In this document: piece by piece, positions 23,936 to 62,803 of the stretch
Layout: every line of letters starts with the position of its first letter
How positions within the stretch are numbered: position 1 is the stretch's first letter
From: Candidatus Omnitrophota bacterium
GTDB lineage: Bacteria > Omnitrophota > Gorgyraeia > Gygaellales > Profunditerraquicolaceae
Direction: 5' to 3'
Assembly: GCA_028716245.1 (NCBI GenBank)
Contig: JAQUQW010000002.1
Span: forward strand, 8,947 to 72,946
DNA: 64,000 nucleotides
Position numbers and translations under genes: made by a program
Notes under the pieces: model-generated
The model's input: the letters and a program-made list of their open reading frames with translations, nothing else
The model's database searches: none
What the model was told of the DNA's origin: nothing

Positions 23936-24136
23936 TCAAGTGTTTTCTTGGCCCGGAATCACGCTTACGCGTACCTTCGCCGGCTTAGCTCCGGCCATGC
24001 CAAAAAGGCCTTTTTTCTCCTCGGACAAGCTCTCAATCTTAACCTGGCTGCGTGGTAGTTTTAATTCTTTCAGGGCTTTTTCAATCGCCTCTTCCACGGT
24101 TTTGCCTTCAGATTCTACATATTTCACTTTTTTCAT
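23936..24136 (-). CDS. Jag/KhpB N-terminal-domain-only protein (KH and R3H domains absent)
   Basis: MKKVKYVESEGKTVEEAIEKALKELKLPRSQVKIESLSEEKKGLFGMAGAKPAKVRV matches the Jag_N domain. The ORF ends after about 66 aa. Start chosen at the ATGA overlap with the yidC stop. Confidence 0.5.
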   Translation of the reverse strand: MKKVKYVESEGKTVEEAIEKALKELKLPRSQVKIESLSEEKKGLFGMAGAKPAKVRVSVIPGQENT

Positions 24137-25662: not shown

Positions 25663-25667
25663 AAATT

Positions 25668-25868
25668 TTATATTAAGGGATCATAACCTGACCGCCCAGA
25701 AAAAGGATGGCAGTGCAATATTCTGATTAGCCCCTTTAATACTCCTTTAATTAATCCGTATTTTAAAATTGCCTGCTTTGTATATTCAGAACAGCTGGGT
25801 TCAAAACGGCAACAGACCGGAATAGCCGGCCTTAAATATTTCTGGTATAGCGCTATTAACGCAAGCAT
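25668..25868 (-). CDS. yidD: membrane protein insertion efficiency factor YidD
   Basis: CRFEPSCSEY motif. The ORF-track start (25892) would overlap rpmH. The internal Met at 25868 is the likelier start. Confidence 0.8.
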   Translation of the reverse strand: MLALIALYQKYLRPAIPVCCRFEPSCSEYTKQAILKYGLIKGVLKGLIRILHCHPFSGRSGYDPLI

Positions 25869-25882
25869 CGGGCGGTTTAGCT

Positions 25883-26020
25883 TCAGACGCAAAGGCGTTG
25901 TCTGCCCTTGCTCCGTCGACGAGCCAAAAGCTTGCGTCCGGATTTAGAGGCCATTTTACTGCGGAACCCGTGGCGTTTTTTACCGACAATATTTGTGGGT
26001 GTCTTTAAATTCTTTTTCAT
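25883..26020 (-). CDS. rpmH: 50S ribosomal protein L34
   Basis: Not in the ORF track (45 aa). Hand translation: [45 protein letters not shown], stop TGA. Confidence 0.9.
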
Positions 26021-26092
26021 TTGGAATCTCCCTTTTTATGAAATTGATTTTGTGAATTGTAACACACATTTATTCGCAGGTCAAGTTTTTTA

Positions 26093-26120
26093 TTGACGCT
26101 TCAACATATTACTGTATAAT
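26093..26120 (+). promoter_or_regulatory. candidate sigma70-type dnaA promoter (TTGACG-16-TATAAT)
   Basis: TTGACG at 26093-26098 and TATAAT at 26115-26120. A second extended -10 (TGTTATAAT, 26162-26170) with TTGCAA 17 nt upstream lies closer to dnaA. Confidence 0.45.
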
Positions 26121-26202
26121 AACTCACGTTTATCTTTTTTGCTTGCAAGGATTTTGCGCTCTGTTATAATAGCGGTGTTTAAAGAAAATTTGGTCGCCTG
26201 TT

Positions 26203-26233
26203 TTATCCACAGATTTATGCAAGTTGTGCATAA
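26203..26233. promoter_or_regulatory. DnaA boxes: perfect TTATCCACA (26203-26211) and inverted one-mismatch TGTGCATAA (26225-26233)
   Basis: Seen directly. Matches the canonical DnaA box TTATCCACA, about 55 bp upstream of the dnaA start codon. Plausibly autoregulatory and/or oriC-associated. Confidence 0.6.
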
Positions 26234-26265
26234 ACTGTTAACTCTGTAGATTCCGTCAGAAAATC

Positions 26266-27603
26266 ATGCTCGAGCTTACTAAAAACTGGGAAGAAACGCA
26301 AGAAACTTTAAAGGCTAAGTTAGGGGAAACGATCTTTGCTACCTGGATAGCGCCGTTGAAATTTTCGGTCCAAGATAGCCAAAGTATCAATCTTGAGGCG
26401 CCGGATCAATTTTTTAAAGATTGGGTGGAGAAACACTACTTCGACCTTATCCGGGAAACCTTGAAACATAAAGGCCTGGATAATCTGTTAGTAAGGCTGG
26501 TTGTCAGCAGCAGGCAGGAGGATTTAAGCGTCATTAATGCTTCTGTCGAAACCAATATTAAAAGCGCTCCTGCCACAGGCTTTATTAATCTTAATTCGCG
26601 TTATACATTTGAAAACTTTGTGGTGGGGCCGTCAAACCGGCATGCGCACGCTTATTCACTAGCGGTGGCCAATTCGCCGGCTAAAACATATAATCCGTTA
26701 TTCATTTATGGAGGGGTGGGGCTGGGCAAAACCCACCTGATCCAGGCGATCTGCCATCAAATAAAAAATAATAATCCCTCGGGAGTAAAAATATGCTACG
26801 TCTCAAGCGAAAAATTTACCAACGAACTAATTGACGCCATCGTCCACCGTTCCACCACGGCCTTCCGCCAAAAATACCGAAATCTGGATGTTTTGGTTAT
26901 CGACGATATCCACTTTATCGCCGGAAAAGAATCCACTCAGGAAGAGTTTTTCCACACCTTTAACACTTTATACGATGCGCATAAACAGATTGTGTTTTCT
27001 TCAGACCGCCCCCCCAAAGAAATTACCAATTTACAGGAAAGGCTGGTTTCACGGTTTGGCTGGGGGCTGGCTACGGATATTCAGCCTCCGGATTTAGAAA
27101 CCCGGGTGGCGATCCTCAAGAAAAAAATTGAACGGGAACCGGTTAATGTCCCTGATGAAGTAATTTTTTTTATCGCCCAACTAATTAAAACTAATATTCG
27201 TGAATTGGAGGGGGCTTTGATTAGAACCATCGCCTATTCTTTGCTAGAGGAGGCCCCGGTTACCCTGCAACTAACTAAAGAGGTGTTAAAGGACCTGCTC
27301 AAAGAACCGACAAAGCTAATCACAGTAGATTTTATCCAGCGTTGCGTAGTTGAAGAGTTCGGGATTTCCCTGCAGGATCTTAAAACCAAACGGCGCAATA
27401 AACAAGTTGTGTTCCCAAGGCAAATTGCCATGTATCTAAGCAGGGAGTTAACTGACTTGTCTCTGCCGGAAATTGGGGAGCTTTTTGGCGGCAAAGATCA
27501 TACAACAGTTTTGCACTCTTACAATAAGATTAAAGAAGATATTCACCGTAACCCGGAATTAAAAGAACGGGTTGAAAAAGTTGTTCAAGTTATAAAACAG
27601 TAA
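26266..27603 (+). CDS. dnaA: chromosomal replication initiator protein DnaA
   Basis: 445 aa. AAA+ Walker A GGVGLGKTHL, sensor motifs, C-terminal DnaA-box-binding domain (VVFPRQIAMYL...HTTV). Confidence 0.95.
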   Translation: MLELTKNWEETQETLKAKLGETIFATWIAPLKFSVQDSQSINLEAPDQFFKDWVEKHYFDLIRETLKHKGLDNLLVRLVVSSRQEDLSVINASVETNIKSAPATGFINLNSRYTFENFVVGPSNRHAHAYSLAVANSPAKTYNPLFIYGGVGLGKTHLIQAICHQIKNNNPSGVKICYVSSEKFTNELIDAIVHRSTTAFRQKYRNLDVLVIDDIHFIAGKESTQEEFFHTFNTLYDAHKQIVFSSDRPPKEITNLQERLVSRFGWGLATDIQPPDLETRVAILKKKIEREPVNVPDEVIFFIAQLIKTNIRELEGALIRTIAYSLLEEAPVTLQLTKEVLKDLLKEPTKLITVDFIQRCVVEEFGISLQDLKTKRRNKQVVFPRQIAMYLSRELTDLSLPEIGELFGGKDHTTVLHSYNKIKEDIHRNPELKERVEKVVQVIKQ

Positions 27604-27627
27604 TTCCCAGGTTATTAGAATGGACTA

Positions 27628-27653
27628 TTTGTCATAATTACTCTTATGACAAA
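27628..27653. promoter_or_regulatory. perfect 10-bp inverted repeat TTTGTCATAA-ttactc-TTATGACAAA in the dnaA-dnaN spacer, followed by an AT-rich stretch (possible oriC DUE module)
   Basis: Seen directly. Downstream 27690-27740 is about 85% AT (TTAAGTTATTAAATATATATAAATAG). Confidence 0.35.
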
Positions 27654-27744
27654 GGATTGGGCTCTTGTTAACAAATATGAGGTTGTATTACGGTTACTAT
27701 GATTTTAAGTTATTAAATATATATAAATAGAAGGGGAATCTAAG

Positions 27745-28839
27745 ATGAAATTTAAAGTCGAAAAAACAAACCTAGTTAACGCGATTCAGACCGTACAAAA
27801 CATAATTACCACAAAATCCGCCCTGCCAATCCTTTCCAATGTCTTAATTGAGGTTCAATCCGGGGTTCTGAAATTAACGGCAACCGATTTAGATATTGGA
27901 ATAACCTGTGTAATTCCTGTGGATATGCAGGAGCCTGGAGCAATTACTATCCCGGCTAAAAGATTTAGCGATATAGTTAAAGAGTTTCCTTTAGATATTA
28001 TTAGTGTTACTACTAAAAAAAATAATCAGGTCCTTATTGATTCGGATATGTGTCAATTTAAAATTATGGGGTTGGCCAAAGAAGAGTTTCCTAAGTTACC
28101 CGAATTTAAAGACAAGAAAGTTATTAAAATTAATCAGGGAGTTTTAAAACAAATATTAGCATTAACCGCGTTTGCGGTATCTTTCGATGAAACCCGTTAT
28201 GTTTTAAATGGCATTCTTTTTAAGATTAGTAAGGGGATCTTAACCCTGGTGGCTACTGACGGCAAGCGGTTGGCGATTACCGAGAGAAAAATAACCATGG
28301 CCGAGTCTGATGTCGAGGTGAGTATGATTATTCCGATCAAAACAATTCAGGAATTAAACCGGAACCTGAAAGATGAAGGGGAGCTGTCTTTAGTGGTTAG
28401 TAGTAATCAGGCTCTTTTTGATTTGGGTAGTGTTGCGGTTGTATCGCGTTTAATTGAGGGTGAATTTCCCGACTACAAACAAGTTATCCCTGCGGCATCC
28501 GAAAACAAAATGAAAGTTGAACGCCAACAGTTTTTATTGGCAGTCAAAAGAGCCGCGCTTTTAGCCACGCCGGATTATCAGGCGGTAAAGTTGGAAGTTT
28601 TTAAGAATAAGCTGGTAATTTCAAAATCTACTCCTGATGTGGGAGAGTTTCATGAAGAGTTGGCGGTAGAATATCAAGGTAAGGAGTTGGTGATTGGCTT
28701 TAACCCGGTCTATTTAATGGATGTTTTAAAGAATTTAAATGAAGAGACAGTTAGTTTAGAGTTGACGGACGCGGAAAAACCCGGGGTTATTCGGATTAGC
28801 GGTTATGTTTATATAGTTTTACCTATGCGCCTTAACTAG
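27745..28839 (+). CDS. dnaN: DNA polymerase III beta sliding clamp
   Basis: 364 aa. Three-domain clamp with conserved C-terminal VLPMRLN-type ending. Confidence 0.9.
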   Translation: MKFKVEKTNLVNAIQTVQNIITTKSALPILSNVLIEVQSGVLKLTATDLDIGITCVIPVDMQEPGAITIPAKRFSDIVKEFPLDIISVTTKKNNQVLIDSDMCQFKIMGLAKEEFPKLPEFKDKKVIKINQGVLKQILALTAFAVSFDETRYVLNGILFKISKGILTLVATDGKRLAITERKITMAESDVEVSMIIPIKTIQELNRNLKDEGELSLVVSSNQALFDLGSVAVVSRLIEGEFPDYKQVIPAASENKMKVERQQFLLAVKRAALLATPDYQAVKLEVFKNKLVISKSTPDVGEFHEELAVEYQGKELVIGFNPVYLMDVLKNLNEETVSLELTDAEKPGVIRISGYVYIVLPMRLN

Positions 28840-28842
28840 GAA

Positions 28843-29127
28843 ATGGAACTTTTAAAAAATACACTGGATGAAGTTATGCGGGGCTTAAACGCCAAAAAGG
28901 GTGTTTCCGCGAATGCCCAGCCGCAGCAGTGGTTAAAAAAAGCCTTGACAAAGAAAGAGTTGGGGCATATAAAAGTTAAATATTTCAGCAAGGGCGTCCT
29001 GGGTTTAAGCGTGGATTCTTCCGCCTGGCTGTATATTTTAAGCCTTAAGAAGGAAGAATTGCTGGGTAAGCTAAAAAAAGAAAACCCCGGATTAAAAAAT
29101 ATAAGTTTTCGTATCGGAGAAATTTAA
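28843..29127 (+). CDS. DUF721-domain protein (DciA-like), in the position usually held by recF
   Basis: 94 aa, basic. Sits between dnaN and gyrB. DUF721 is the defining domain of DciA helicase-operator proteins. Assignment from context and composition. Confidence 0.5.
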   Translation: MELLKNTLDEVMRGLNAKKGVSANAQPQQWLKKALTKKELGHIKVKYFSKGVLGLSVDSSAWLYILSLKKEELLGKLKKENPGLKNISFRIGEI

Positions 29128-31569
<2,442 letters not shown>

Positions 31570-46947: not shown

Positions 46948-47481
46948 ATGGCCTCTTATTATACATATTTGATTTCCAGCCTGCCGATACTTAATTTTTC
47001 TATAAAGATGCCTTTTAGTTTAAAGGTTTTTTTTGCTAAGTGTAAGGGTTTAATTCCGGAAACAGAAATTGAAATTTTACATAACGCCTGTTATCAAGAC
47101 ATCGATTTTTTAAATACAACAGCAGGGGGGTGTTTAAAGAAATGGGTAAATTTTGAAGTAACCCTGAGAAATGAGCTGGCTCGCGTTAGAGCCAGGGGTA
47201 AAAAGATCGATCCCGCAAAATTTATCCGGTTTCCTGACCACCCGCAATTCCATATCAGCCACGTGGCAATGGCCGCGCACCGGCACAGCGCCAATGTATT
47301 GGAAGCGGAAAAGATCCTGGACCAGGAGAGGTGGGATTTTTTAGAACAGCTGTCTTTTGGGCATTATTTTGATTTTGATTTCTTATTGATTTACGCGTTA
47401 AAGCTTAAAATCCTGGAGCGCTGGGATAAGGCCGCTAATGCGGATAAAGGGCATTTATTTGACGCGGTATTTTTAGATTAA
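46948..47481 (+). CDS. V-ATPase-operon-associated hypothetical protein (DUF2764-like; occupies the slot of subunit C/F/G in other V/A-ATPase operons)
   Basis: 177 aa. No recognisable catalytic motif. Position between E and A mirrors the Chlamydia/spirochaete operon layout as I recall it. Confidence 0.4.
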   Translation: MASYYTYLISSLPILNFSIKMPFSLKVFFAKCKGLIPETEIEILHNACYQDIDFLNTTAGGCLKKWVNFEVTLRNELARVRARGKKIDPAKFIRFPDHPQFHISHVAMAAHRHSANVLEAEKILDQERWDFLEQLSFGHYFDFDFLLIYALKLKILERWDKAANADKGHLFDAVFLD

Positions 47482-47488
47482 ATTCATT

Positions 47489-49228
47489 ATGGAAAAAAAG
47501 AGAACCGGCAGCGTTGTTAAGGTTAACGCCAACATGGTTACCGCCCAGGTTGACGGCAATATCATCCAAAATGAGGTTGCCTATATTATTCACGGGCAGG
47601 AGCGCTTAAAAGCGGAAGTTATCCGCGTACGCGCCAATCAGGCGGAGATGCAAGTTTATGAAAGTACGCAGGGTTTAAAAGTCGGCGATCTTGTAGAGTT
47701 TAGCAATGAACTTCTCTCTGTAGAGCTTGGCCCCGGTTTATTGGGCCAAATCTTTGATGGGCTGCAGAATCCCCTGCCCGCGCTGGCTCAAAAATGCGGA
47801 TTTTTCTTAAAACGCGGCGTCTATCTTGAGGCTCTCAGCGACCAGGCGCAATGGGATTTTACCCCTTTGGTAAAACCAAAAGATAAGGTCTTAGCCGGCA
47901 GCTGGCTGGGTTTTGTCCCTGAGAAATTTTTTAAACATTATATTATGGCTCCGTTTATGCTTACCGGTTCCCTGGAGGTGGTAAGCATTGCTCCGGCCGG
48001 TAAATATAATTTAAAACAGCCGATTGCCCAGCTTAGAGATTCTACCGGGCACATCCACGATGTTTTTTTACAACAGAGCTGGCCGGTAAAAATACCGATT
48101 CGTGCCTACGCGGAAAAAATAAGGCCGCATGAACCGCTGGTAACCAAAATGCGCCTGATCGATTCGCTTTTTCCGGTCAGCCGCGGAGGCACATATTGTA
48201 TTCCCGGCCCCTTTGGCGCCGGGAAAACCGTCTTACAACAGTTGACCAGCCGCCACGCGGAAGTGGACATCGTCATTATTGCCGCCTGCGGAGAACGCGC
48301 CGGAGAAGTTGTCGAAACATTAAAAACTTTTCCCGAGTTAATCGATCCGCGCACGGATAAACCGCTGATTGACCGCACGGTAATTATCTGTAATACCAGC
48401 TCGATGCCGGTTGCCGCCCGCGAATCCAGCGTCTATACCGCGGTGACCATCGCGGAATACTACCGCCAGATGGGCCTGAATGTTTTATTGCTTGCCGATT
48501 CTACTTCCCGGTGGGCCCAGGCGATGCGCGAGATGAGCGGACGCCTCGAGGAGATTCCGGGGGAAGAAGCGTTTCCGGCATACCTGGAGTCGCGGATTGC
48601 CTCTTTTTATGAACGGGCCGGGGTCGTCAGGCTTTACGGCGGCGCAACCGGTTCGGTAACCATAGGCGGCACGGTCAGCCCTGCCGGAGGAAATTTTGAG
48701 GAACCGGTTACCCAGGCAACGCTAAAAGTAGTCGGCGCTTTTCACGGGCTTTCGCGCGAACGTTCCGATGCCCGAAAATATCCGGCCATCGACCCGTTAA
48801 TCAGCTGGAGTAAATATAAGAGTATCGTTGACCCCCGGCATCAGGAAAAAGGCCGCTCGATTTTACAGCGCAGCCACGAAATCGCGCAAATGATGAAAGT
48901 TATCGGCGAAGAAGGCACTTCGTTAAATGATTATATCGAGTATTTAAAGGGGGAGTTTTTTGATTTTATTTATCTGCAGCAGAATGCCTTTGATCCGGTT
49001 GATGAGGCCACATCCCAAGAGCGGCAGATTTATTTATTCGCCTTTATTTGCGATATCCTGGACTCAGAGTATAAATTGGAAAATAAAGAAAGCGCCCTGC
49101 ATTTTTTTCAAGCCTTGCGCCAGCTTTTCCGCGGCTGGAACTCCACTGAATATAACAGCAAGGAATTTGAAGAGATCGAGGAAAAAATAGCCATATTTTT
49201 GGAAGAGAAAATAATTAAAGCCGTATAA
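47489..49228 (+). CDS. atpA: V-type ATP synthase catalytic subunit A
   Basis: 579 aa. Walker A GPFGAGKT, non-homologous insert region, DSTSRWAQA motif. Confidence 0.9.
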
Positions 49229-49230
49229 AT

Positions 49231-50526
49231 ATGCAAAAAGCCTACACTAATATTATTCAAATAGCCGGGGATGTTATTACCGTCCAGGCCCAGGGCGTGG
49301 GGTACCTGGATATCGCCCAGATTACCTGCGGCCGGAGCGTTTCTTTGGCCCAGGTTATCCGCATCGATTCGACAAAAGTATCTTTGCAGGTTTTTGCCGG
49401 CAGCCGCGGAATATCGACGCAGGATAAGGTAAGGTTCTTGGGCCATCCGATGCGCGTGGCCACCGGAGAAAATCTATTGGGCCGCATCTTTAACGGCAGC
49501 GGCCTGCCCCTGGATCGCGGGCCAGTGCTTTCTGAAAACTTAACGGCAATCGGGGCGCCTTCCGTAAACCCGGTCAGGAGAATTATTCCCAATAAAATTA
49601 TCCGCACCGGTATTCCAATGATCGATGTTTTTAATTCACTGGTAGAATCACAAAAGCTTCCGGTTTTTTCAATTGCCGGGGAGCCTTATAATGAGCTTCT
49701 GGCGCGCATTGCCATCCAGGCAGAAATAGATACGATTATTTTAGGCGGGATGGGTTTAAAATATGACGATTTTCTTTTCTTTCGGGAAACATTAAACGCC
49801 CACGGCGCCCTTTCGCGTTGCGTATTTTTTATCCACACCGCGGCTGACCCTACCGTTGAGTGTTTACTTGTGCCGGATATCAGCTTAGCCGTGGCCGAAG
49901 ATTTCGCTTTAAAAGGCAAGCGGGTATTGGTTTTATTAACCGATATGACTAACTTCGCCGATTCTTTGAAAGAAATTTCGATTACCATGGAGCAGGTTCC
50001 TTCTAACCGCGGCTATCCCGGGGATCTTTACAGCCAGCTTGCCGCCCGGTATGAAAAAGCGGTTGATTTCGAAGGGGCAGGTTCAATTACCATCCTGGCT
50101 GCCACGACAATGCCCGGAGATGATGTGACGCATCCGGTCCCGGATAATACCGGCTATATCACCGAAGGCCAATTCTACTTGAAGTCCGCGGTTATTGAGC
50201 CGTTTGGGTCATTAAGCCGCTTAAAGCAGCAGGTAAACGGTAAAACCCGCCCGGACCATCGCACGATTATGGATACGATGATCCAGCTCTTTGCCAATTA
50301 CCGGGAAACCCTGGAGAAACAAGCAATGGGGTTCCAGATGAGCGCCTGGGATAAGAAATTACTTAAATACGGTTTGCTTTTTGAAGAGAATATGATGTCG
50401 CTTAAGGTAAATATCCCTTTGGAAAAAGCCCTGGATTTAGGCTGGCAGATTTTAGCGGATTGTTTTTCTCCCGAGGAAACCGGGATAAAGCTTTCGATTA
50501 TTGAGCAGTTTTGGCCGAAAGACTAA
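49231..50526 (+). CDS. atpB: V-type ATP synthase subunit B
   Basis: 431 aa. A/B-family fold without a complete P-loop. [18 protein letters not shown] motif. Confidence 0.9.
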
Positions 50527-51143
50527 TGGCAAAAATAAAATTTACCAAAGGCGAATTAAAAAGGCAGCGCGACGCCCTAAAACAATTTCAGCGCTACCTG
50601 CCCACCTTGCAGTTAAAGAAACAGCAGTTACAGCTGGAGATCCTGCAGCAGAATTCCGTCCTGGAAGCAAAGAAACAGGCTTTGTCCAAAAAAAGGCAGG
50701 CAATTGATCTTTGGTCCGGTTTGCTTGCAGACCCGCTGGTAGATTTGAAAACATATTTAAAGCCGGAAAAAATCATTACCCACCCTAAAAATATCGCTGG
50801 TACGGATATCCCCGTATTTGACGGGGTGGAATTTGCCGCGCCGGATTACGATTTATTTCTTATGCCTCTGTGGCTTGATTTTGCGGTTGAGGCCTTCAGG
50901 GAAATTTTTATTTTAAATAAAGAGGTAGCGCTAGCTGAGGAAAGCATTGCTATCCTAAGGCATGATCTGCGCATCACTACGCAAAGAGTCAATCTTTTTG
51001 AGAAAGTAAAGATTCCACTTGCCGAGGAAAATATCCGCCTGATTAAGATTTATATCGGGGACCAGATGGCTAACGCCGTAGGCCGCAGTAAAATTGCCAA
51101 GAAAAAGATCGAAGAAGCGGTTTTTGCGGGAGGACTAGTATGA
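50511..51143 (+). CDS. atpD: V-type ATP synthase subunit D
   Basis: 210 aa. Coiled-coil central stalk ([33 protein letters not shown]). Confidence 0.8.
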
Positions 51144-52906
51144 TTGTCCCGATGAAAAAAGCGACCGTAGTTACCCAGGCTAAAGACAGCCTGAGCGGGT
51201 TAAGTAAATTACGTTCTTTGGGAGTTTTACATGTTGAACATACGCAAATTCCCAAGGGCAAGGATATTGTTATCTTAACTGAAGAGATTTCCTTGATCGA
51301 TCAGGCTTTAAGTATTTTGTCCGGAGTAAAAATTCAACCCCAATATGTTCCCAAAGATCAAGAGGCAGCTGACGGGCAATTTACCATCCGCCATATCATC
51401 GATTTATATAAACGTAAAGACCAGTTAGCCGAGTATTTGACCTCCCTTTCTGTGCACATAAAGCAGTATGAAGAATGGGGTGATTTTGACCCGCAGGATT
51501 TTGCGGATTTAGCCAAAAATAATATCTTCGCCGGGCTTTATCAGGTACCACTCAAACAATTAAGGCAAATACCAAACGATATCGTCGTCAATAAATTATC
51601 GATTAAAGGGGGAATTGCCAATTGCCTGATTATTTCGGATAAGAAAATAGATCTTGGCTTTAAAGAAATTCCCCTACCTGCGACGAGCTTAGCGCAGATG
51701 TATGCGCGCAGAGCGCATGATCTTCAGGCAATCCAGCATATTGAAAAGCAATTGGCCGAACAGTTTAGCTACCGGCTGAGTTTAAATAAAATCAGGAGCA
51801 GTTTACAGAAAAAATTAGAGTTTCAGGAAGCCCTTGCCGGAATGGGCCAGGCAGAGGAGCTGGTTTTTATCAGCGGTTATATTCCTTTTGATAGCCTGGA
51901 GAGGTTAGTGCATCAGGCAAAACAAGAACAATGGGCTCTGCTTGTTGAGGAACCGGCAGATGAAGACAATGTCCCGGTTCTGCTGCGTAATCCGGCCTGG
52001 ATTACCATCATCAGCCCGGTATTTAAGTTTCTTGAAATATTGCCCGGTTACCGTGAGCTGGATATTAGTTTGTGCTTCCTCATTTTTTTTAGTATTTTCT
52101 TTGGCATGTTGATTGGCGATGCCGGATACGGCCTGGCCTATTTTCTGATCACCTTCTTTTTGCACCGGCAGGCCAGAAAAAATAAGAAAAATACCGGCAG
52201 TTTTTTTCTCTTTTACATCCTTAGTTTTTGCGCTATCATATGGGGGGTCTGCACGGGCACGTTCTTTGGACATGAATGGGTTTTAAAAGCAGGGTATAAA
52301 CCCTTGATCCCTTCGCTTAACGATGAAAAAACACTGCAGAGATTTTGTTTTTTTCTCGGAGCCACGCATCTGTCGATTGCCCACATCTGGCGCGCAATAC
52401 TTAAAGCTCCGGCTTTAGGCTTGATCGCGGATCTTGGCTGGGCCTGTATCTTATGGGCCTGTTTTTTTATCGCCAAGGTGCTTATCCTGGGAGATAGTTT
52501 TCCGTTTTTTGGCAACTGGTTGCTGATTACCGGGATTATGCTGGTTATAATATTCACCAATCCGCAGAAAAATATCCTAAAAGGCATTGGTTCAGGCTTA
52601 GGCACATTGGCGTTAAGCTTGATGAATAATTTTACCGACGTGGTTTCATATATCCGTCTTTTTGCGGTAGGTTTGGCTGGGGTAGCTATTGCCGATGCTT
52701 TTAACGCTATGGCTTCTTCTGTGGGAAACGCAAGCGCAGTTTCTTTAATTTTGGCGGCTTTTATTGTTTTGGTTGGCCATAGCCTCGGTATTATGTTGGG
52801 CCCGGTGGGAGTATTAGTGCACGGAGTAAGGTTGAATGTGCTGGAATTTTCAGGCCATGCCAATATTTCCTGGAGCGGCCGAAATTATAAACCTTTAAGA
52901 GAATAG
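51140..52906 (+). CDS. atpI: V-type ATP synthase subunit I (a)
   Basis: 588 aa. Soluble N-terminal half, polytopic C-terminal half with the conserved Arg-containing helix (VSYIRLFAVGLAG). Confidence 0.75.
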   Translation: MIVPMKKATVVTQAKDSLSGLSKLRSLGVLHVEHTQIPKGKDIVILTEEISLIDQALSILSGVKIQPQYVPKDQEAADGQFTIRHIIDLYKRKDQLAEYLTSLSVHIKQYEEWGDFDPQDFADLAKNNIFAGLYQVPLKQLRQIPNDIVVNKLSIKGGIANCLIISDKKIDLGFKEIPLPATSLAQMYARRAHDLQAIQHIEKQLAEQFSYRLSLNKIRSSLQKKLEFQEALAGMGQAEELVFISGYIPFDSLERLVHQAKQEQWALLVEEPADEDNVPVLLRNPAWITIISPVFKFLEILPGYRELDISLCFLIFFSIFFGMLIGDAGYGLAYFLITFFLHRQARKNKKNTGSFFLFYILSFCAIIWGVCTGTFFGHEWVLKAGYKPLIPSLNDEKTLQRFCFFLGATHLSIAHIWRAILKAPALGLIADLGWACILWACFFIAKVLILGDSFPFFGNWLLITGIMLVIIFTNPQKNILKGIGSGLGTLALSLMNNFTDVVSYIRLFAVGLAGVAIADAFNAMASSVGNASAVSLILAAFIVLVGHSLGIMLGPVGVLVHGVRLNVLEFSGHANISWSGRNYKPLRE

Positions 52907-53736: not shown

Positions 53737-55251
53737 ATGTTGAAGAAACTATACCTTGCGTTAATTTTAGCCTCAAGTTTTATTTCTTACGCCTACGGTT
53801 ATGAGCTGCTTGATACCGAGCAGTTAGGGCTGGCATTAAATACTTATCTGCGTACGGATTTAGTAAGTTTGAGAAATGTAGTGAACCTGGATAGCCATAA
53901 TCAGGATGACCGGACTACTTATTTAGGTATTGATTACAGTTTTGCTCTTAGTGCGGATTTTAAGGACTCCGGTAACAAGTTTTATCTTAAGCTTGAACGT
54001 AACGGGCCATATGATTACAGCGCCCCGCTTTTTATTCATAATACGCTGATTAACTCCGGCGGCAGAGTAGAGAAGTATCGTAATGCGGAATTGCTCCCGC
54101 AGATTGAGGAACTTTGGGTTGATTCCAAACTCTTTGATAGCTTTGGGGTTAAGGCAGGTCTATATATTTATGAAGTAGGCAATGGTTTTAGCCTTAATGG
54201 TAGCTATGAAAATTACGGGCTGACCTTATATAAACAAACACAAGATATTTTTTGGCGCCTTTACTATTGCCGGCCGGATTCAGTTTACAAATATCGCCTA
54301 GGCCCGCATATTAAACAGGAAAAAGAGCAGGGCCAGAAATATGAACCCAATGCGGCTAATTTTTTTGCTACCGATGCCAAGATTACAGCAGGTAAGCAGA
54401 CATTTTGGCCATATGTGGGGATGTTGGCAGATTATACCTCGAGCGCAAAAAGGGATAATTTATTTGCCGCTTCCATAAAAAAGGATTTGTTGGGGACCTT
54501 TGGCACTGCCTGGGAATATAGGGCCGAAGATTTCACTCTAAAATTAGAAGCCGCGCATAATTTCGGGTATGCCCAAAGCCAGGATGATGCCTATAAAGAT
54601 ATTGCTCATGCCGGATACATGTTTTACTCCGGTTTAGATTATGTCCTGGGAAAATTTGTTCCGGAAGTGCAATTTTTGGTTTGTTCCGGGAATAAGGCTA
54701 CCCCGGAAATGGCAGAGAACGGTGATACCAAATACGTCGGAGGGAAAAACCGCGCCTTTAGTTATTTTTCTCCCACAAATTTTAATTTAGGGGATACGAT
54801 AAGCAGCAGCAATGTGGATATGCTTCCCATTGTGGCTATGGGCGGAGGTTATGGTCTAAATTACGGAGTGCCGCGGCCAAAGACGTTTTCCTCGGGAGAT
54901 TTTGAAAATTTGATTATGCCTTCGGTAGGTTTTGATTATAATTTTACCGAGAAGCTCTGCACGAGTTTATATGGGTATTATTTGATGGCTTTTAACCGTC
55001 CCGTGGGGACTTTAGATAACCAGGGAAAATATCTCTCCCGAGATTTAGGGTATGAAGCAGATTTATTTATTGATTATAAAGCCAGCCAACATTTGACCGT
55101 GGGTTTTTTAGGCGGCTATTTTGTCCCGGGCAAGTTTTATAAAGAAAGGCGCGATGATCTGGACGGCAGTTTATTCAGCCCTTTTCTGCGCGGGGACGGC
55201 CAGGCTAATAATGCTTATCAGATTAAATTTTACGCGGAGCTAAGATTTTAA
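53737..55251 (+). CDS. putative outer-membrane beta-barrel protein (porin/exporter-like)
   Basis: 504 aa. Signal peptide. Alternating amphipathic Tyr/Gly-rich segments. C-terminus ...YAELRF ends in Phe as in OMP85-targeted beta-barrels. Confidence 0.45.
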   Translation: MLKKLYLALILASSFISYAYGYELLDTEQLGLALNTYLRTDLVSLRNVVNLDSHNQDDRTTYLGIDYSFALSADFKDSGNKFYLKLERNGPYDYSAPLFIHNTLINSGGRVEKYRNAELLPQIEELWVDSKLFDSFGVKAGLYIYEVGNGFSLNGSYENYGLTLYKQTQDIFWRLYYCRPDSVYKYRLGPHIKQEKEQGQKYEPNAANFFATDAKITAGKQTFWPYVGMLADYTSSAKRDNLFAASIKKDLLGTFGTAWEYRAEDFTLKLEAAHNFGYAQSQDDAYKDIAHAGYMFYSGLDYVLGKFVPEVQFLVCSGNKATPEMAENGDTKYVGGKNRAFSYFSPTNFNLGDTISSSNVDMLPIVAMGGGYGLNYGVPRPKTFSSGDFENLIMPSVGFDYNFTEKLCTSLYGYYLMAFNRPVGTLDNQGKYLSRDLGYEADLFIDYKASQHLTVGFLGGYFVPGKFYKERRDDLDGSLFSPFLRGDGQANNAYQIKFYAELRF

Positions 55252-55263
55252 AAAGGAGTTAAG

Positions 55264-55584
55264 ATGGCGACAATCGATGATTTTAGAAAGTTAGAATTAA
55301 GGATAGCGGAAATAAAAGAGGTTAATGACCATCCGAACGCGGACAAATTATTGATTTTAACCGTGGATTTAGGTGACAGGCAAAAGCAGGTGGTTGCCGG
55401 GATCAAGGCTTACTATTCAAAAGAAGAGTTAATCGGTAAGCAGGTAGTCTTAGTTGATAATTTGGATCCGGTAGTTTTACGCGGAGTAGAAAGCCAGGGG
55501 ATGATTTTGGCCGGTTCAGATGAAAACACGCTGGCAGTAGTTAACCCGGATAAAAAATTGAAGCTGGGAAGTATTGTAAAATGA
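55264..55584 (+). CDS. standalone tRNA-binding OB-fold protein (tRNA_bind / EMAP-like; CsaA/Trbp111 family)
   Basis: 106 aa. LELRIAEIKEVNDHPNADKLLILTVDLGD...QVVAGIKAYY...GKQVVLVDNLDPVVLRGVESQGMILA matches the tRNA_bind domain consensus seen in MetRS/PheT C- or N-terminal appendages. Confidence 0.75.
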   Translation: MATIDDFRKLELRIAEIKEVNDHPNADKLLILTVDLGDRQKQVVAGIKAYYSKEELIGKQVVLVDNLDPVVLRGVESQGMILAGSDENTLAVVNPDKKLKLGSIVK

Positions 55585-56090
55585 TCAAACAGTTCGTTCC
55601 GCAGGAGTTTTGTATCAAATGCCGGGGGTGCTGCCGGTTTAAAGAAGCAAATTCCGTATGGAGCCCCTGCCTTCTGGACGAGGAGATCCAGGAGCTGTTG
55701 GATAAAAGAGGAATTCCCGCCGCCTCTATTTCTATTGACCGCCGCTTGCATCTTATCGCCAATCCTGATGGCGCGGATTTTATCTGCCCGTTTTTAGGCA
55801 GCGCGGATAACAAATGCAAAATCTACGATATCCGGCCGTTTGAATGCCAGCTTTATCCCTTTTTGATTAATTTACGCAGAGGAAAAGTACTCTTGACCGT
55901 GGATTTAAATTGCCCGTATGTTTATGAAAAGATAAATAGCCGGGAGGCCAAAGACTATATTATTTATCTGACCAGTTATCTTAATTCTCCGCAAATGCTA
56001 AAAATGCTCAAAGATAACCCTCAGATTATCCAGGCCTATGAAGAGGTAAGAGAGGTTGCCGAAATAAACTTACCCCATGAAACTAAATAA
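55581..56090 (+). CDS. YkgJ-family Cys-cluster (putative zinc/iron-chelating, UPF0153) protein
   Basis: 169 aa. CIKCRGCC (CxxCxxCC) near the N-terminus plus downstream Cys (CPFL...CKIY...CQLYPF...CPY). 4-nt overlap with the upstream gene. Confidence 0.6.
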   Translation: MIKQFVPQEFCIKCRGCCRFKEANSVWSPCLLDEEIQELLDKRGIPAASISIDRRLHLIANPDGADFICPFLGSADNKCKIYDIRPFECQLYPFLINLRRGKVLLTVDLNCPYVYEKINSREAKDYIIYLTSYLNSPQMLKMLKDNPQIIQAYEEVREVAEINLPHETK

Positions 56091-56973
56091 ACTAACTTTA
56101 AAAAATCATAAGCTGTTCAGCCAATACCTTGCTTTGGAGCCGCATGAGCTGGCAGCTTACTCTTTTGCCAATATCTACATTTGGCGTTCTCTCTATGATA
56201 TCGGCTGGGCAGTGATTGAAAATAGCCTCTGCGTATTTTTTCGCGATCAGATCGGCTGTTTTATGTATTTGGGGCCGCTGGCAAAAGAAAAGAGGCCGCG
56301 CGCCATAAAAGAGAGTTTTGCAATCATGGATAGTATTAATAAAAACAAAGATATCAGCCGCATTGAAAATATTGAAGAGAGGAATTTAGAGTATTATCGG
56401 GCCTTAGGATATCTTTGCCACGAGAAATATCCGGACTACCTTTGTTTAAAGAACGATTTGGCGTTTCTGCGGGGGAATAAATTTAAATCCCAGCGCGCCT
56501 CGTATAATTTTTTCATCAAACACTATCATTTCGAATGGGCAAAGTTGAAATTGATGGATAGGGATGATTGCTTAAGCTTGTTTAATTCCTGGGCGGAATT
56601 GCGCAAAACACAATCTTGCGACGATCTTTATTGCGGCATGCTTGAGGATAACCGTAAGGTAATCAAAGAGGCGTTTGCTAATTATAAACCGCTGGGTTTA
56701 GAAGGCATCTGCGTAAGGATAGATAAAAAAATCAAAGCCTTTAGTTTTGGCTACCGGTTGAATAATGAGACATTTTGCGTGCTTTATGAAATAACCGACC
56801 TTTCCATTAAAGGATTGGCGCAGTTTATTTTTCGCCAATTTTGCCGGGAATTAAAAGATTATAAGTATATTAATATCATGGACGATTCAGGTTTAGAGAA
56901 TTTACGTAAAACGAAGTTATCTTATAAACCTAAGTGTTTAATTCCAGCCTATATTGTAACTGGCGATGCCTGA
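56077..56973 (+). CDS. DUF2156-like protein (lysyl-phosphatidylglycerol synthase C-terminal-domain-like, aminoacyl-tRNA-dependent transferase fold)
   Basis: 298 aa. Soluble. The segment YSFANIYIWRSLYDIGWAVIENSLCVF and overall size/composition resemble standalone DUF2156 proteins. Assignment from memory, not from a search. Confidence 0.4.
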   Translation: MKLNKLTLKNHKLFSQYLALEPHELAAYSFANIYIWRSLYDIGWAVIENSLCVFFRDQIGCFMYLGPLAKEKRPRAIKESFAIMDSINKNKDISRIENIEERNLEYYRALGYLCHEKYPDYLCLKNDLAFLRGNKFKSQRASYNFFIKHYHFEWAKLKLMDRDDCLSLFNSWAELRKTQSCDDLYCGMLEDNRKVIKEAFANYKPLGLEGICVRIDKKIKAFSFGYRLNNETFCVLYEITDLSIKGLAQFIFRQFCRELKDYKYINIMDDSGLENLRKTKLSYKPKCLIPAYIVTGDA

Positions 56974-57553
56974 AGATATCGATCAAGTGGAATTTACCAT
57001 ATTTGATACTGAGACTACCGGTTTATATCCTGATGCCGGAGACCGCATTGTCGAGCTGGCGGCCTTACGGGTCAAAGGCAAACAGAGATTAGCCGTATTC
57101 GATTCTTTAGTTAACCCCGGCCGGCCGATTTCTCCGGGTGCTTTTGCCGTAAATAAAATAACTCCGGAGATGTTAAAAGACGCTTTGTCCATTGAGACAG
57201 TCATGCCTAAGTTTTTAGATTTTATTGCCGGCAGCTGTCTTTGCTCCTACAATGCGGGATTTGATCTAAGTTTCTTAAATAATGAGCTTAAGTTGATCGG
57301 CTCCGGCGCGATCAATAATATCGTTGTTTTTGACGTGCTGACCATGGCTAAAAGGCTTATGCCGGCTTTACCCCGCTACGCGCTTTGGTTTGTGGCAAAG
57401 GAACTGGGGATAGAATCAAAACAAGAGCACCGGGCCTTTTCCGACGTGGAGATGACCTGGGAGGTTTTTACCAAGCTTAAAATTATTTGCGCGCAAAAAG
57501 GTATTACTAGTTTTGCCGGCCTCTTTAAATTAGGGACAGCGACTATTTTTTAG
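56966..57553 (+). CDS. DEDDh 3'-5' exonuclease (DnaQ/RNase T-like epsilon-type domain)
   Basis: 195 aa. Exo I FDTETTG, Exo II, Exo III HRAFSDVEMT motifs. 8-nt overlap with the upstream gene. Confidence 0.75.
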   Translation: MPEDIDQVEFTIFDTETTGLYPDAGDRIVELAALRVKGKQRLAVFDSLVNPGRPISPGAFAVNKITPEMLKDALSIETVMPKFLDFIAGSCLCSYNAGFDLSFLNNELKLIGSGAINNIVVFDVLTMAKRLMPALPRYALWFVAKELGIESKQEHRAFSDVEMTWEVFTKLKIICAQKGITSFAGLFKLGTATIF

Positions 57554-57590: not shown

Positions 57591-57675
57591 TAATACATTG
57601 CATTAGCCACCATTTGTTATAAAATATGATTCGCGAGTTTTTTAAAGGACGATCTTCCTGGTTTAGGAGAGCCAA

Positions 57676-59616
57676 ATGTTGTTTAAAAACAAAGTAAAGC
57701 CGGCCATAGAGCAGCGTAAATACCTGCGTTTGGATACGGTGTTTCCGGTGCAGTTCCGCCTGGAGGGCCTGGAAGGCGAAACTTTTCTTTCCAGCTGGCT
57801 GCAGGGTTTTACCAATAATATCAGCCGCGGCGGCCTTTGCCTTTTCATCAATAATATCGGCCCTGACCTGCTTAAGCTGGTTAAAGAAAAGAAATGTAAA
57901 TTATCGTTAGAGATCGATATCCCCATCAGCAAAAAACCAATTCCCGCCCAAGCCAGCATTGTTTGGTTCAAAGAAACCTCCGAAGGTAAGCGCAAATGCC
58001 AGATCGGGTTAAATTATGACCGGATATCGGCCAAGCAGAATAATGAATTAATGCGCTATGCCTGGTTAAAGAAGCTTTTTATCCCGGTAGCTTTATCGGC
58101 AATGGTGGTGATTACCTTAATTTTAGGTATCAATAGCTATTTAAATTTTAACTTAACCCGTAGCAATAAGCTGCTGGTTGAAAAGCTGTCCAGCGTATTA
58201 AAAGATTCCCGCCTGGCCGAACAAAAAATAGGGGAAATCGTTGCGCAGCGGCAGGATCTTCAGGTAAAACTGAAAGCTTTAGAAGAGCGGATTAAATCTG
58301 TTGAGTCGCAAAAAGCCCAAACCGAAGCAAGCAATCTAGGTCAGATTAAACAACTTAATGAATCGATTGCCGCCTTAACCGCAGAAAAACTTGTTTTAGA
58401 AACCAAATTAACCGCTGCCCAGCGCACTGAGAATGTCGCGGTTAAAGAATTATCCCGGTTAGATGAAAAGAAAATAGTACTGGAGAAAGCTAATTTTGAC
58501 AAGATGTACCAGTGGCTTAAGGTACATCAAAATAACCGCACCGGTTTGGTCTCGAGTTTTGAAGGAGATCAGGATATTGCTAACTGGTCATTTACTTATG
58601 ACTTGGCCCTGCTCATCCAGGCCTATACGTATTTTGGAGATTTTGACCGCGCCAAGAAAATTCTGGAATTTTTTGCGCATAAAGCCAAAAGAGAAAATGG
58701 CTGGTTTCTCAATGCTTATTATGTCAACGACGGCGGCCCGGCGGAATTTATCATGCACAGCGGGCCCAATCTCTGGGTAGGCCTTGCTATTATGCAATAT
58801 ATGCAAGGCAGCAAAGATAAGAGTTATCTGGGCTTAGCCGAGAGTATCGCCCAAACGATTATTGACCTGCAGAATGCGGATGCTGACGGCGGTATCCGCG
58901 GCGGCCCGGAGGTAGAGTGGTATTCTACGGAACATAATCTTGATGCTTACGCGTTTTTTAATATGCTGGCTAAGGTTACCGGGAGGGAAAAATATGCGCA
59001 AGCCAGCCAAAAGACGATAACTTGGCTTCTTGAGCATACTTATGACCGGCCGGATTTACCGGTTAAGCGCGGTAAAGGAGATTCTACCATTGCTACAGAT
59101 ACCTATGCCTGGTCGATCGCCGCGATCGGCCCGCAAAAACTTCAAGAGCTGGGAATGGATCCGGACAAGATCATGGAGTTTGTCGAAGAGAACTGCGGGG
59201 TTGAGGCTAATTTCCTGCGGTTAAATGGCCAGAGCGTAAAGATAAAAGGATTTGATTTTGCTCCGCAGCTGCATACAGCCCGCGGCGGCGTGGTTTCTTC
59301 GGAGTGGACTGCCCAGATGGTGGTGTCTTATAAAATCATGGAAGATTTTTATTCTAAAGGCGGCGCCGGTATGCCTAAAGCGGCTGATTATGGGAAAAAA
59401 GCGCAGATGTATCTAAATGAATTAGGCAACATGGTTATCTCCAGTTCTTCTCCCTCCGGCCAAGGGGAAGGCTGTTTGCCTTATGCTACTCAAGAGCATG
59501 TTGATACCGGGCACGGCTGGATGACGCCTAAAGGCAGCCATACCGGATCAGTTTCCGGTACGGCATACACTCTTTTTGCCTATTACGGTTTTAACCCTTT
59601 AGAGCTTAAAGAATGA
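57676..59616 (+). CDS. PilZ-domain (c-di-GMP receptor) - TM - coiled-coil - (alpha/alpha)6-toroid glycoside-hydrolase-like fusion protein
   Basis: 646 aa. N-terminal PilZ motifs RKYLR and N-I-S-R-G-G. One TM helix (LFIPVALSAMVVITLILGI). About 130 aa heptad coiled coil. C-terminal ~350 aa with six-hairpin-glycosidase-like repeats (TGLVSSFEG...WSFTYDLALLIQAY; NLWVGLAIMQY; TDTYAWSIAAIG). Confidence 0.55.
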   Translation: MLFKNKVKPAIEQRKYLRLDTVFPVQFRLEGLEGETFLSSWLQGFTNNISRGGLCLFINNIGPDLLKLVKEKKCKLSLEIDIPISKKPIPAQASIVWFKETSEGKRKCQIGLNYDRISAKQNNELMRYAWLKKLFIPVALSAMVVITLILGINSYLNFNLTRSNKLLVEKLSSVLKDSRLAEQKIGEIVAQRQDLQVKLKALEERIKSVESQKAQTEASNLGQIKQLNESIAALTAEKLVLETKLTAAQRTENVAVKELSRLDEKKIVLEKANFDKMYQWLKVHQNNRTGLVSSFEGDQDIANWSFTYDLALLIQAYTYFGDFDRAKKILEFFAHKAKRENGWFLNAYYVNDGGPAEFIMHSGPNLWVGLAIMQYMQGSKDKSYLGLAESIAQTIIDLQNADADGGIRGGPEVEWYSTEHNLDAYAFFNMLAKVTGREKYAQASQKTITWLLEHTYDRPDLPVKRGKGDSTIATDTYAWSIAAIGPQKLQELGMDPDKIMEFVEENCGVEANFLRLNGQSVKIKGFDFAPQLHTARGGVVSSEWTAQMVVSYKIMEDFYSKGGAGMPKAADYGKKAQMYLNELGNMVISSSSPSGQGEGCLPYATQEHVDTGHGWMTPKGSHTGSVSGTAYTLFAYYGFNPLELKE

Positions 59617-61438: not shown

Positions 61439-62803
61439 ATGGACAAAAGAATAATAATTGTACTTATTATAATAATTTTTTTTGCGGCATTATTCGCCTA
61501 CACTAGACAAAACATTACCAAAATAGGTAGTTTAAACAATATGCAAAATTTTACATATATCGGGCCAAATGGAAATCTTTCTAGTGTTAAAGTTGCCACT
61601 TTGTATGAAAAAGTGACGGACAAAGAATTTATCGGCGGGAGAAGCTTGAACGAAACAGTCAAAGTGCTGAAAGAAACGCGCGCGGATATGATTTTCCGCG
61701 GGTTTTGGATTTGGAATGCTCCTGTACCGGAATCTTCGGATAATATTCCTCCGGAAATAATTGATTTGGCAGCTAAGCGCTTGAATATAAAACCGGAGCA
61801 AGTTCCGGAATTTATCGAAAAAAGCGGTCTTTCTTATAAAGAGCTTGAAAATACCATATCCGCAATAAAAAAAGAAATGCCCGGAATTATTTTCGTAGGC
61901 GCACTCCCCGCCCAGTCTGTCGGAAGGATCGAAATTGATCCGATAACCGGCAAGGTTTATAACAATGAAGATACCTGGGACATGGCTTTTGATCCGCAAA
62001 AGTGGAATATAAACTATACATACAAAGGCAAGCTATTAACCAAGGATGAATTTCAGAAATTAGAAGCGACAAATAATCAGGAAACATTCAAAAACGGCTA
62101 TGATTATCGCCAAGCATATGGTTATTTTCCCGATATTACAAATCCGGATTTTCAGGAGCTTTTCTTGAGCTGGGCAAAAAAGCAGATAGATTCAGGTGCT
62201 GACGCTATATGGATTGATTTGTTGTATTCGCAGGCGAATGTCCTCAAAGGCATGACCGGTGACCTAAACCATCATGCAGTCAGAGAATCCTATGACGAGG
62301 CATCAAAAATGGTAGACCAGATACATAAATATGGAGAATCAAAAGGAAAGCATGTCTATGTTGGAACATGGTCTGAACCCGTCATTGATTATCAGGGAGT
62401 TTTGCCAAAACTTGATTTTGTGACCACAACGCCTTCATCCGAAGAAATATATTATGGAAAATTTGACGAAGCAAGATGGAGCCGGATAAATATGGGCGTG
62501 AAAAATAAATTCGGCAATATCCCCCATTTCGCTTTTATTGATTGGGGCGGAAGACCCGATGCACCGATAGATGTTTTTAGCCAGCGCCTAAGCGTAAACG
62601 AACAAAAAGAATTCCTAAAAAAAGCGGATGAATTTTTTTCGAACAAAAACATAATTTTTATCTATCCGGTCCATGGCGCCGACTTCTGGGGTGGCGTAAA
62701 AACGCGCGCTTTTGGAAAATTTACCAAATATGATTCGCTTGCGCCGGAATTTGATACTTATGATATAATTAAAAAGCTTGCGAATAAAAAAGCATTAAAA
62801 TAA
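61439..62803 (+). CDS. hypothetical N-terminally anchored extracytoplasmic protein (possible TIM-barrel glycosidase-like)
   Basis: 454 aa. N-terminal TM/signal anchor IIIVLIIIIFFAALFAY. No motif I can name. Segment GADAIWIDLLYSQ is reminiscent of glycoside hydrolase barrels. Confidence 0.4.
   Translation: MDKRIIIVLIIIIFFAALFAYTRQNITKIGSLNNMQNFTYIGPNGNLSSVKVATLYEKVTDKEFIGGRSLNETVKVLKETRADMIFRGFWIWNAPVPESSDNIPPEIIDLAAKRLNIKPEQVPEFIEKSGLSYKELENTISAIKKEMPGIIFVGALPAQSVGRIEIDPITGKVYNNEDTWDMAFDPQKWNINYTYKGKLLTKDEFQKLEATNNQETFKNGYDYRQAYGYFPDITNPDFQELFLSWAKKQIDSGADAIWIDLLYSQANVLKGMTGDLNHHAVRESYDEASKMVDQIHKYGESKGKHVYVGTWSEPVIDYQGVLPKLDFVTTTPSSEEIYYGKFDEARWSRINMGVKNKFGNIPHFAFIDWGGRPDAPIDVFSQRLSVNEQKEFLKKADEFFSNKNIIFIYPVHGADFWGGVKTRAFGKFTKYDSLAPEFDTYDIIKKLANKKALK

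Follow-up and report, generated by a model that had tools for sequence, protein, structure and literature searches.

A PilZ domain joined through a membrane helix and a stalk to a six-hairpin glycosidase-like domain in Omnitrophota

What does a cytoplasmic second-messenger receptor do on the same polypeptide as a domain that resembles glycan-processing enzymes? The question is raised by an open reading frame (ORF) in a 64,000-nucleotide stretch of contig JAQUQW010000002.1 (Candidatus Omnitrophota bacterium, assembly GCA_028716245.1), the whole of which we refer to as the window. In the ORF list the gene occupies positions 57676..59616 of the forward strand, as do all of its features described below, and encodes 646 amino acids plus stop from an ATG start. 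Its product consists of an N-terminal PilZ domain, a single transmembrane (TM) helix, a helical stalk and a C-terminal six-hairpin domain, and we refer to it as the PilZ-barrel protein. Judging from the sequence, it would be a membrane-tethered periplasmic glycan-processing enzyme under the control of cyclic diguanosine monophosphate (c-di-GMP), a reading to which we give about an even chance. An initial annotation of this DNA had proposed that a c-di-GMP receptor in the cytoplasm is tethered to a six-hairpin domain outside it, one resembling carbohydrate-active enzymes, and the domain predictions and topology presented here uphold this logic.

Architecture and topology of the PilZ-barrel protein

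The cytoplasmic N-terminal domain (residues 12-128; 57709..58059) matches the Pfam PilZ family PF07238 at 34.4 bits, with E 2.8e-8 and profile positions 1-99 of 102 covered. The initial annotation had recognised PilZ by its motifs, and the match clears the gathering cut-off of 22.5 bits. The RxxxR motif involved in c-di-GMP binding, R14-K-Y-L-R18 (57715..57729), has both of its arginines invariant in two alignments: one of 42 close sequences of the fused protein (A1), and one of 39 fused homologues drawn from 50%-identity cluster representatives, with 28-57% identity to the window protein (A3). The (D/N)xSxxG motif, N48-I-S50-R-G-G53 (57817..57834), is slightly more variable: in A3 G53 is invariant, S50 is found in 77% of the sequences, and position 48 is Asn in 54% and mostly Asp in the remainder. 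The AlphaFold2 (AF2) model of the full protein, with a mean predicted local distance difference test score (pLDDT) of 81.8 and a predicted template modelling score (pTM) of 0.70, places β-strands at residues 17-30, 42-49, 53-59, 75-80, 89-102 and 107-116, followed by a helix from residue 119. Six strands and a C-terminal helix are the canonical PilZ layout, here predicted with block pLDDT values of 85-92. Residues 1-13 have pLDDT below 50, which fits the flexible N-terminal arm that is expected to close over the ligand. Since the domain scores above the gathering cut-off and both motifs are invariant or nearly so in fused homologues down to 28% identity, we predict with good confidence that the PilZ barrel binds c-di-GMP via R14xxxR18 and N48xS50xxG53. 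A phmmer search with the PilZ domain against PDB sequences returned nothing significant, and there is no second copy of either the PilZ or the barrel domain elsewhere in the window.

The PilZ domain is followed by a single TM helix, residues 134-156 (58075..58143), predicted to act as a signal-anchor. The 19-residue Kyte-Doolittle hydropathy reaches its maximum of 2.66 here, all other segments of the protein stay at or below 1.4, and R127, K132 and K133 lie on the N-side of the helix. The periplasmic stalk, residues 157-283 (58144..58524), is predicted to be a coiled coil of two helices with a break near residues 216-222. There is no proline in residues 157-286 and there are only two glycines, G186 and G222; the heptad a/d hydrophobic periodicity is 2.55 standard deviations above that of 300 shuffles and is weakest in windows spanning residues 197-238. 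In the AF2 model one unbroken helix, residues 119-215, runs from the C-terminal helix of PilZ through the membrane into the stalk, and after a turn a second helix covers residues 221-283 (block pLDDT of the stalk helices 74-92). It is at this break that the close homologues aligned in A1 place stalk insertions and deletions of 7-21 residues. The single-chain model fits a hairpin and an oligomeric coiled coil equally, and the stalk may be either. Overall, Pfam, hydropathy, heptad analysis and AF2 agree with the four-part anatomy of PilZ, one TM helix, coiled coil and six-hairpin-like domain that was first read from the sequence by eye.

Which side of the membrane does the C-terminal domain face? 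PilZ needs to be on the cytoplasmic side in order to meet c-di-GMP, and this should place the C-terminal domain outside the cytoplasm. The relatives of the barrel point in the same direction: in 28 of 32 stand-alone or multidomain proteins a hydrophobic 12-residue window at the N-terminus has a mean of at least 1.9, indicating a Sec- or lipoprotein-type leader directly before the domain. Since most stand-alone relatives begin with such a signal sequence, the barrel domain works outside the cytoplasm. With one hydrophobic segment, a basic N-side and secreted stand-alone relatives, the N-in, C-out topology is well supported, and the barrel is very likely extracytoplasmic. The window encodes YidC with a periplasmic domain as well as a candidate β-barrel outer-membrane protein (OMP), as expected of a diderm. 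We model the PilZ-barrel protein as spanning the inner membrane of a diderm Omnitrophota bacterium in type-II orientation (N-in, C-out).

The C-terminal barrel and its relation to GH76

The domain of about 355 residues at the C-terminus (residues 290-646; 58543..59613), predicted to be periplasmic, is modelled as an (α/α)6 barrel whose helices mostly have pLDDT values of 85-97, with some loops below 60. The top Foldseek matches in the PDB are all (α/α)6 barrels, led by glycoside hydrolase family 76 (GH76; E 9e-8) and followed by AGE epimerases, GH15, GH126 and GH105. The initial annotation had suggested a comparison with toroid families, of which GH76, AGE and GH15 are thus among the best fold matches, and had named a TPR/SLR-like solenoid as the alternative fold; the modelled domain is a barrel. 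At the level of the model the fold, a twelve-helix α/α toroid, is secure, and it leaves the chemistry undecided.

GH76 is the natural starting point for the chemistry. Its Pfam profile (PF03663) is the only one to match the barrel, over the N-terminal half of the profile and below the gathering cut-off of 25.9 bits (21.5 bits with the full protein, 24.1 with the domain alone), and just two of the 32 family members that we scanned match it at E<=0.01. When a profile of 32 diverse family members was compared with the PDB, GH76 structures were the only significant relatives (6u4z, E 6.4e-5). The GH76 α-1,6-mannanases BcGH76/Aman6, BT3792 and BT2949 share with the PilZ-barrel protein both the (α/α)6 barrel and an N-x-W-[IV]-G-L motif at a helix start. 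The two differ just before this motif. Where GH76 has the Asp-Asp pair that serves as nucleophile and acid/base (roles taken from the titles of PDB entries for the inactive variants D125N and D136A/D137A), the window protein has G363-P364 (58762..58767): 'sGPNlW' lies opposite 'yDDNiW' in the alignment to 4mu9, and the family profile reads 'tGpNlWigl' opposite 'D-N-V-W-I-G-L' of GH76. Because the Asp-Asp position is occupied by Gly-Pro, with G363 invariant in the family, the barrel is not a GH76 enzyme in catalytic terms. We therefore rejected GH76 membership on the grounds of the sub-threshold Pfam score, the replacement of the catalytic pair and the conservation of other carboxylates.

These other carboxylates belong to a set of eight residues, S294, Y308, D309, G363, E419, D475, E543 and Y603, that are invariant in stand-alone homologues at 24-53% identity and are all kept by the window protein. 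In the AF2 model the first turns of alternate helices, starting at 307, 362, 418, 475 and 542, hold D309, G363, E419, D475 and E543, respectively, and the near-invariant S625 directly precedes the helix that starts at 626. In six-hairpin enzymes the N-termini of the inner helices form the active-site pocket. The alternate helices bearing the conserved residues are presumably the inner ones, and by their position in the predicted secondary structure D309, E419, D475 and E543 are candidate carboxylates of one pocket. A parallel may be drawn with MmpH, the endo-α-1,4-mannosidase of mycobacterial methylmannose polysaccharide (PDB 7QSJ), in which catalysis involves Asp47 or Asp50 and Glu262 (PMC9883506). 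D309 and E543 fall at domain positions 25 and 259, a likeness of sequence position that is suggestive only. MmpH differs in being soluble and actinobacterial, and with 12% identity there is no match at the sequence level. The barrel is also the part of the protein under the strongest constraint: its mean column conservation in A3 is 0.58, compared with 0.46 in PilZ. Taken together, the barrel appears to belong to an uncurated six-hairpin family, a distant relative of GH76 with a carboxylate set of its own. The label 'glycosidase-like' in the initial annotation is thus borne out by fold and conservation, but not by the catalytic pair of the nearest family, and from the sequence we lean slightly towards the barrel being a catalytic glycosidase.

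Distribution and genomic setting

How widespread is this protein? An exhaustive HMMER search with the C-terminal domain against 1.84 billion cluster representatives retrieved 869 clusters at E<=1e-3, 105 of them at E<=1e-30. As judged by local hidden Markov models (HMMs) for each part, the full PilZ-TM-stalk-barrel architecture is present in about 60 of the best 150 representatives (clusters at 50% identity), others being secreted proteins of 370-450 amino acids or proteins of 1,000-7,900 amino acids. Every fused member with an organism name is from Omnitrophota and so are the named stand-alone members; among the named giants there is one exception, P0198, which is labelled Deltaproteobacteria. 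A scan of one genome per GTDB species identified 535 loci encoding a relative, and locus counts in the following refer to the best 80 of these, with many contigs cut short. All 80 loci encode the full-length protein, and the fusion is therefore a recurrent Omnitrophota gene and no one-off; the record titles read Omnitrophota or Omnitrophica in 66 cases, "uncultured Planctomycetales" in 13 and "bacterium" in one.

The combination of PilZ and barrel is already visible in databases but is uncharacterised. A protein 100% identical to the ORF product (P0001) is recorded as 'MAG: PilZ domain-containing protein [Candidatus Omnitrophica bacterium]', and automated labels of some other members read "PilZ domain-containing protein", "glycoside hydrolase family 76 protein" or "Glycosyl hydrolase family 76/PilZ domain". 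In good agreement with the initial annotation, which knew of no characterised PilZ-glycosidase fusion, we found no description of one in the full-text literature searched and none in a review of PilZ architectures. According to a preprint on giant genes of Omnitrophota (bioRxiv 10.1101/2023.11.21.568195), one giant protein contains a GH76-like fold, many of the giants have GGDEF domains, and small pilZ genes adjoin them. These GGDEF domains and small pilZ genes show that c-di-GMP signalling exists in Omnitrophota; the PilZ-barrel fusion is not mentioned there.

The giant for which the preprint reports the GH76-like fold is an 'Archaeovorin' (bioRxiv 10.1101/2023.11.21.568195), which like the PilZ-barrel protein is from Omnitrophota. 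HMMER finds the barrel family in Omnitrophota proteins of 2,000-7,900 amino acids, and the published GH76-like region may be the same domain. Giants of this type are huge multidomain surface proteins proposed to attack the cell walls of prey, whereas the protein described here is the 646-residue product of a syntenic gene and has its own c-di-GMP receptor. The Omnitrophota giant P0233 (3128 amino acids) carries Peptidase_M23 (1345-1433) and LysM (1647-1698) upstream of its six-hairpin domain (1975-2305), and NCBI lists the giant P0268 as an L,D-transpeptidase family protein. Both are weak hints that some members of the barrel family act on cell walls.

Turning to the locus itself, the gene is preceded by a Shine-Dalgarno-like AGGAG (57665..57669, forward strand), read from the sequence 6 nt 5' of the ATG, and its stop codon shares the sequence ATGA with the start of the next gene. 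According to Pfam, the upstream neighbours are a V/A-type ATPase operon, the 504-residue OMP candidate, and genes for tRNA_bind, CxxCxxCC, LPG_synthase_C and RNase_T exonuclease proteins, and the downstream neighbours encode an HhH-GPD glycosylase, an M20 peptidase and a PAC2 protein. Relatives with identities as low as 55% preserve this order. Among the 80 loci, HhH-GPD is retained in 68, M20 in 70, PAC2 in 67, RNase_T in 62, LPG_synthase_C in 63 and the OMP in 28. The PilZ-barrel gene thus behaves as a conserved gene of a housekeeping block. It lies about 31 kb downstream of the start of dnaA-dnaN-gyrB and shares its strand with the surrounding genes. These replication genes (forward strand, from 26.2 kb) follow yidC (reverse strand) in a probable chromosomal origin region at 24136..31566, and both the minimum of the cumulative GC skew and a flip in gene orientation fall at about 24-26 kb.

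The initial annotation had read the locus as one for exopolysaccharide remodelling, with an OMP, an anchored hypothetical protein and a secreted GH-like fragment as companions. We rejected this reading on the basis of synteny across the 80 loci and the Pfam annotation of the neighbours: the flanking genes are housekeeping genes, and each of the proposed partners falls away. The OMP gene is separated from the PilZ-barrel gene by four unrelated genes, is retained in the 28 loci mentioned above, and its Alginate_exp match is below threshold. The anchored hypothetical (61439..62803) accompanies the gene in 0 of the 80 loci, and the GH-like fragment is some 57 kb away, beyond yidC, dnaA, dnaN, gyrB and the V/A-ATPase operon. 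Genes inserted upstream in more distant loci were likewise discarded as partners, since their translations, read by eye, look HypF-like, HypD-like and like a transglutaminase-like lipoprotein rather than like the products of glycan genes.

Several of the surrounding genes merit a description of their own. The V/A-type ATPase operon (47477..52903, forward strand), with genes for A, B, D and I-like subunits, keeps its synteny in related Omnitrophota. The OMP candidate (53737..55251, forward) is a predicted 504-residue outer-membrane β-barrel with a signal-like N-terminus and a sub-threshold Alginate_exp match (22.1 versus 25.2 bits, about 45 residues); its position after the ATPase operon is kept in closer relatives. 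It is followed at 55264..56973 (forward) by a triad with overlapping starts and stops, tRNA_bind (106 amino acids), CxxCxxCC/YkgJ-like (169) and LPG_synthase_C/DUF2156 (298), which is kept in 56-63 of the 80 loci and may be an aminoacyl-tRNA-dependent module for lipid or envelope modification. The RNase_T exonuclease encoded at 56966..57553 (forward) has 195 amino acids; its relatives at about 60% identity have 273-277 with an extra C-terminal WYL domain (for example at 7097..7918 of related locus L001), a part that appears to have been lost in this lineage. The 454-residue ORF at 61439..62803 (forward), which bears a hydrophobic anchor at its N-terminus and matches nothing in Pfam or NCBIfam, is found between the genes for the M20 peptidase and PAC2 in this genome alone; as none of the 80 syntenic Omnitrophota loci has it, it gives the impression of a lineage-specific insertion. 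Finally, a partial ORF on the reverse strand (1..~455) runs off the window start; it begins MLRRVLLFLIFLPFFLSGPCFAQ..., has a clear signal peptide and shows no match to the C-domain HMM, and is presumably the secreted GH-like fragment referred to above. A promoter and terminator scan gave results barely above shuffled expectation and was not used.

A proposed model of c-di-GMP control, its alternatives and significance

How might the two ends of the protein work together? In the mechanism that we propose, c-di-GMP occupancy would shift the arrangement of the PilZ domains, probably by dimerisation in the manner of Alg44, through the C-terminal helix, which in that and other PilZ proteins is an element of dimerisation and protein-protein interaction (bioRxiv 10.1101/814665). 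The change would travel along the continuous PilZ-TM-stalk helix and leave the periplasmic barrel in another position or oligomeric state, or with other partner contacts. The barrel would be a glycan-active enzyme, most probably a hydrolase, that cleaves or remodels an envelope or matrix glycan, and the overall effect would be inside-out control of envelope-glycan processing. Because the gene is fixed in a housekeeping block, we favour an endogenous envelope or matrix glycan as the substrate; because the barrel adjoins peptidoglycan-directed modules in giant Omnitrophota proteins, a cell-wall glycan is the second candidate.

A number of observations weigh against this reading. The barrel stays below the threshold of every curated family: when 32 stand-alone, 10 medium-sized and three giant relatives were scanned with Pfam, the domain gave just marginal matches to several six-hairpin families. 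It lacks the Asp-Asp pair on which GH76 catalysis depends, and its four candidate carboxylates are assigned to one pocket by their position in the predicted secondary structure. The neighbourhood, both in the window annotation and in the related loci, is without a polysaccharide partner. When ORFs were scanned for the GG[DE]EF motif of diguanylate cyclases, the window gave no match and 1.3 Mb of related loci gave just two, attributable to chance, which is uninformative since all of these loci are the same syntenic region. Furthermore, signalling through a single TM helix normally requires oligomerisation.

This last point bears on the step of the model about which we are most cautious. We regard transmission of regulation across the membrane as possible though rather doubtful, and the protein could instead be a periplasmic enzyme to which no signal is passed. 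Depending on the c-di-GMP level, PilZ would then only position, cluster or stabilise the protein or bring in a cytoplasmic partner, and the stalk would be a spacer that sets the reach of the barrel. The pattern of conservation is in keeping with this: in A3 the mean column conservation is lowest, at about 0.3, in the TM helix and stalk, and the variation of 7-21 residues in stalk length among close homologues is tolerable for a spacer but less so for a precise signal rod. The known role of PilZ C-terminal helices in protein-protein interaction (bioRxiv 10.1101/814665) would serve recruitment as well. However, the helix that AF2 predicts to run uninterrupted from PilZ into the membrane speaks against it, and the strictness with which the family keeps both the fusion and the binding motifs shows that the two ends are functionally coupled, by whatever route. 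On balance we consider a spacer arrangement without transmission improbable, at roughly one in five.

An equally improbable alternative concerns the barrel, which could be a non-catalytic pseudo-enzyme that binds glycans or acts as a scaffold; the protein would then be a c-di-GMP-dependent co-factor of an envelope machine, in parallel to Alg44. Yet D309, E419, D475 and E543 are invariant down to 24% identity, including in secreted stand-alone proteins that have neither PilZ nor stalk, a pattern more typical of catalysis than of binding. Nor is there a glycosyltransferase or polymerase partner nearby in the window, and in three annotated related loci the nearest glycosyltransferases are about 3.5 kb downstream, past four unrelated genes. 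Least probable is a non-hydrolytic six-hairpin enzyme, such as an AGE-type sugar epimerase or isomerase, a lyase, or a cyclase that works at the outer face of the inner membrane on a lipid-linked or isoprenoid substrate: H420 and H613, which would parallel AGE histidines, are not invariant in the wider family while the carboxylates are, the only significant sequence-profile link is to the GH76 hydrolases (E 6.4e-5), and free-sugar epimerases have no obvious role in the periplasm.

Preferring, then, the reading as a c-di-GMP-controlled glycan-processing enzyme, how does the PilZ-barrel protein compare with known c-di-GMP receptors that reach into the periplasm? In concept it is similar to LapD, the inside-out c-di-GMP receptor of Pseudomonas fluorescens (PMC3032553), as in both cases cytoplasmic c-di-GMP binding controls, here by proposal, a periplasmic domain of the same protein. 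However, LapD has a degenerate GGDEF-EAL sensor, two TM helices, a HAMP domain and a protease-sequestering periplasmic domain, none of which are found in the PilZ-barrel protein. In layout it is similar to Alg44, the alginate co-polymerase of Pseudomonas aeruginosa, which likewise has an N-terminal canonical PilZ domain with both motifs, a PilZ C-terminal helix leading into a single TM helix, and a periplasmic output domain, and in which c-di-GMP acts on an envelope-polysaccharide process, as we propose here. The two differ in that the periplasmic part of Alg44 is HlyD/membrane-fusion-protein-like, whereas here it is a six-hairpin barrel without any HlyD-family match in Pfam, and in that Alg44 works with the glycosyltransferase Alg8 from a dedicated operon, whereas the PilZ-barrel gene has housekeeping neighbours and no adjacent polymerase or export operon.

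The known routes by which c-di-GMP controls polysaccharides are synthesis and export (BcsA, Alg44, PelD) or periplasmic proteolysis (LapD). With a receptor and a periplasmic six-hairpin enzyme in direct fusion, this repertoire would gain an output in degradation or remodelling, together with a very simple inside-out signalling device. In its strongest form, which we consider unlikely, the protein would be the first glycoside hydrolase gated in the periplasm directly by a cytoplasmic second messenger through one polypeptide, and its barrel would found a new GH family, with catalytic carboxylates of its own, that Omnitrophota have spread into secreted enzymes and giant surface proteins. If this were so, c-di-GMP in these ultra-small, possibly host-dependent bacteria would control the breakdown or remodelling of an envelope or cell-wall glycan, and not its synthesis. 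The C-terminal domain in any case defines an uncurated carbohydrate-active-like family that recurs in the giant proteins of Omnitrophota, a phylum known mainly from metagenome-assembled genomes, in which the PilZ-barrel gene is conserved and envelope biology is poorly understood. Since the two halves of the protein are separately expressible, c-di-GMP binding and activity are accessible in vitro without cultivation of the organism.

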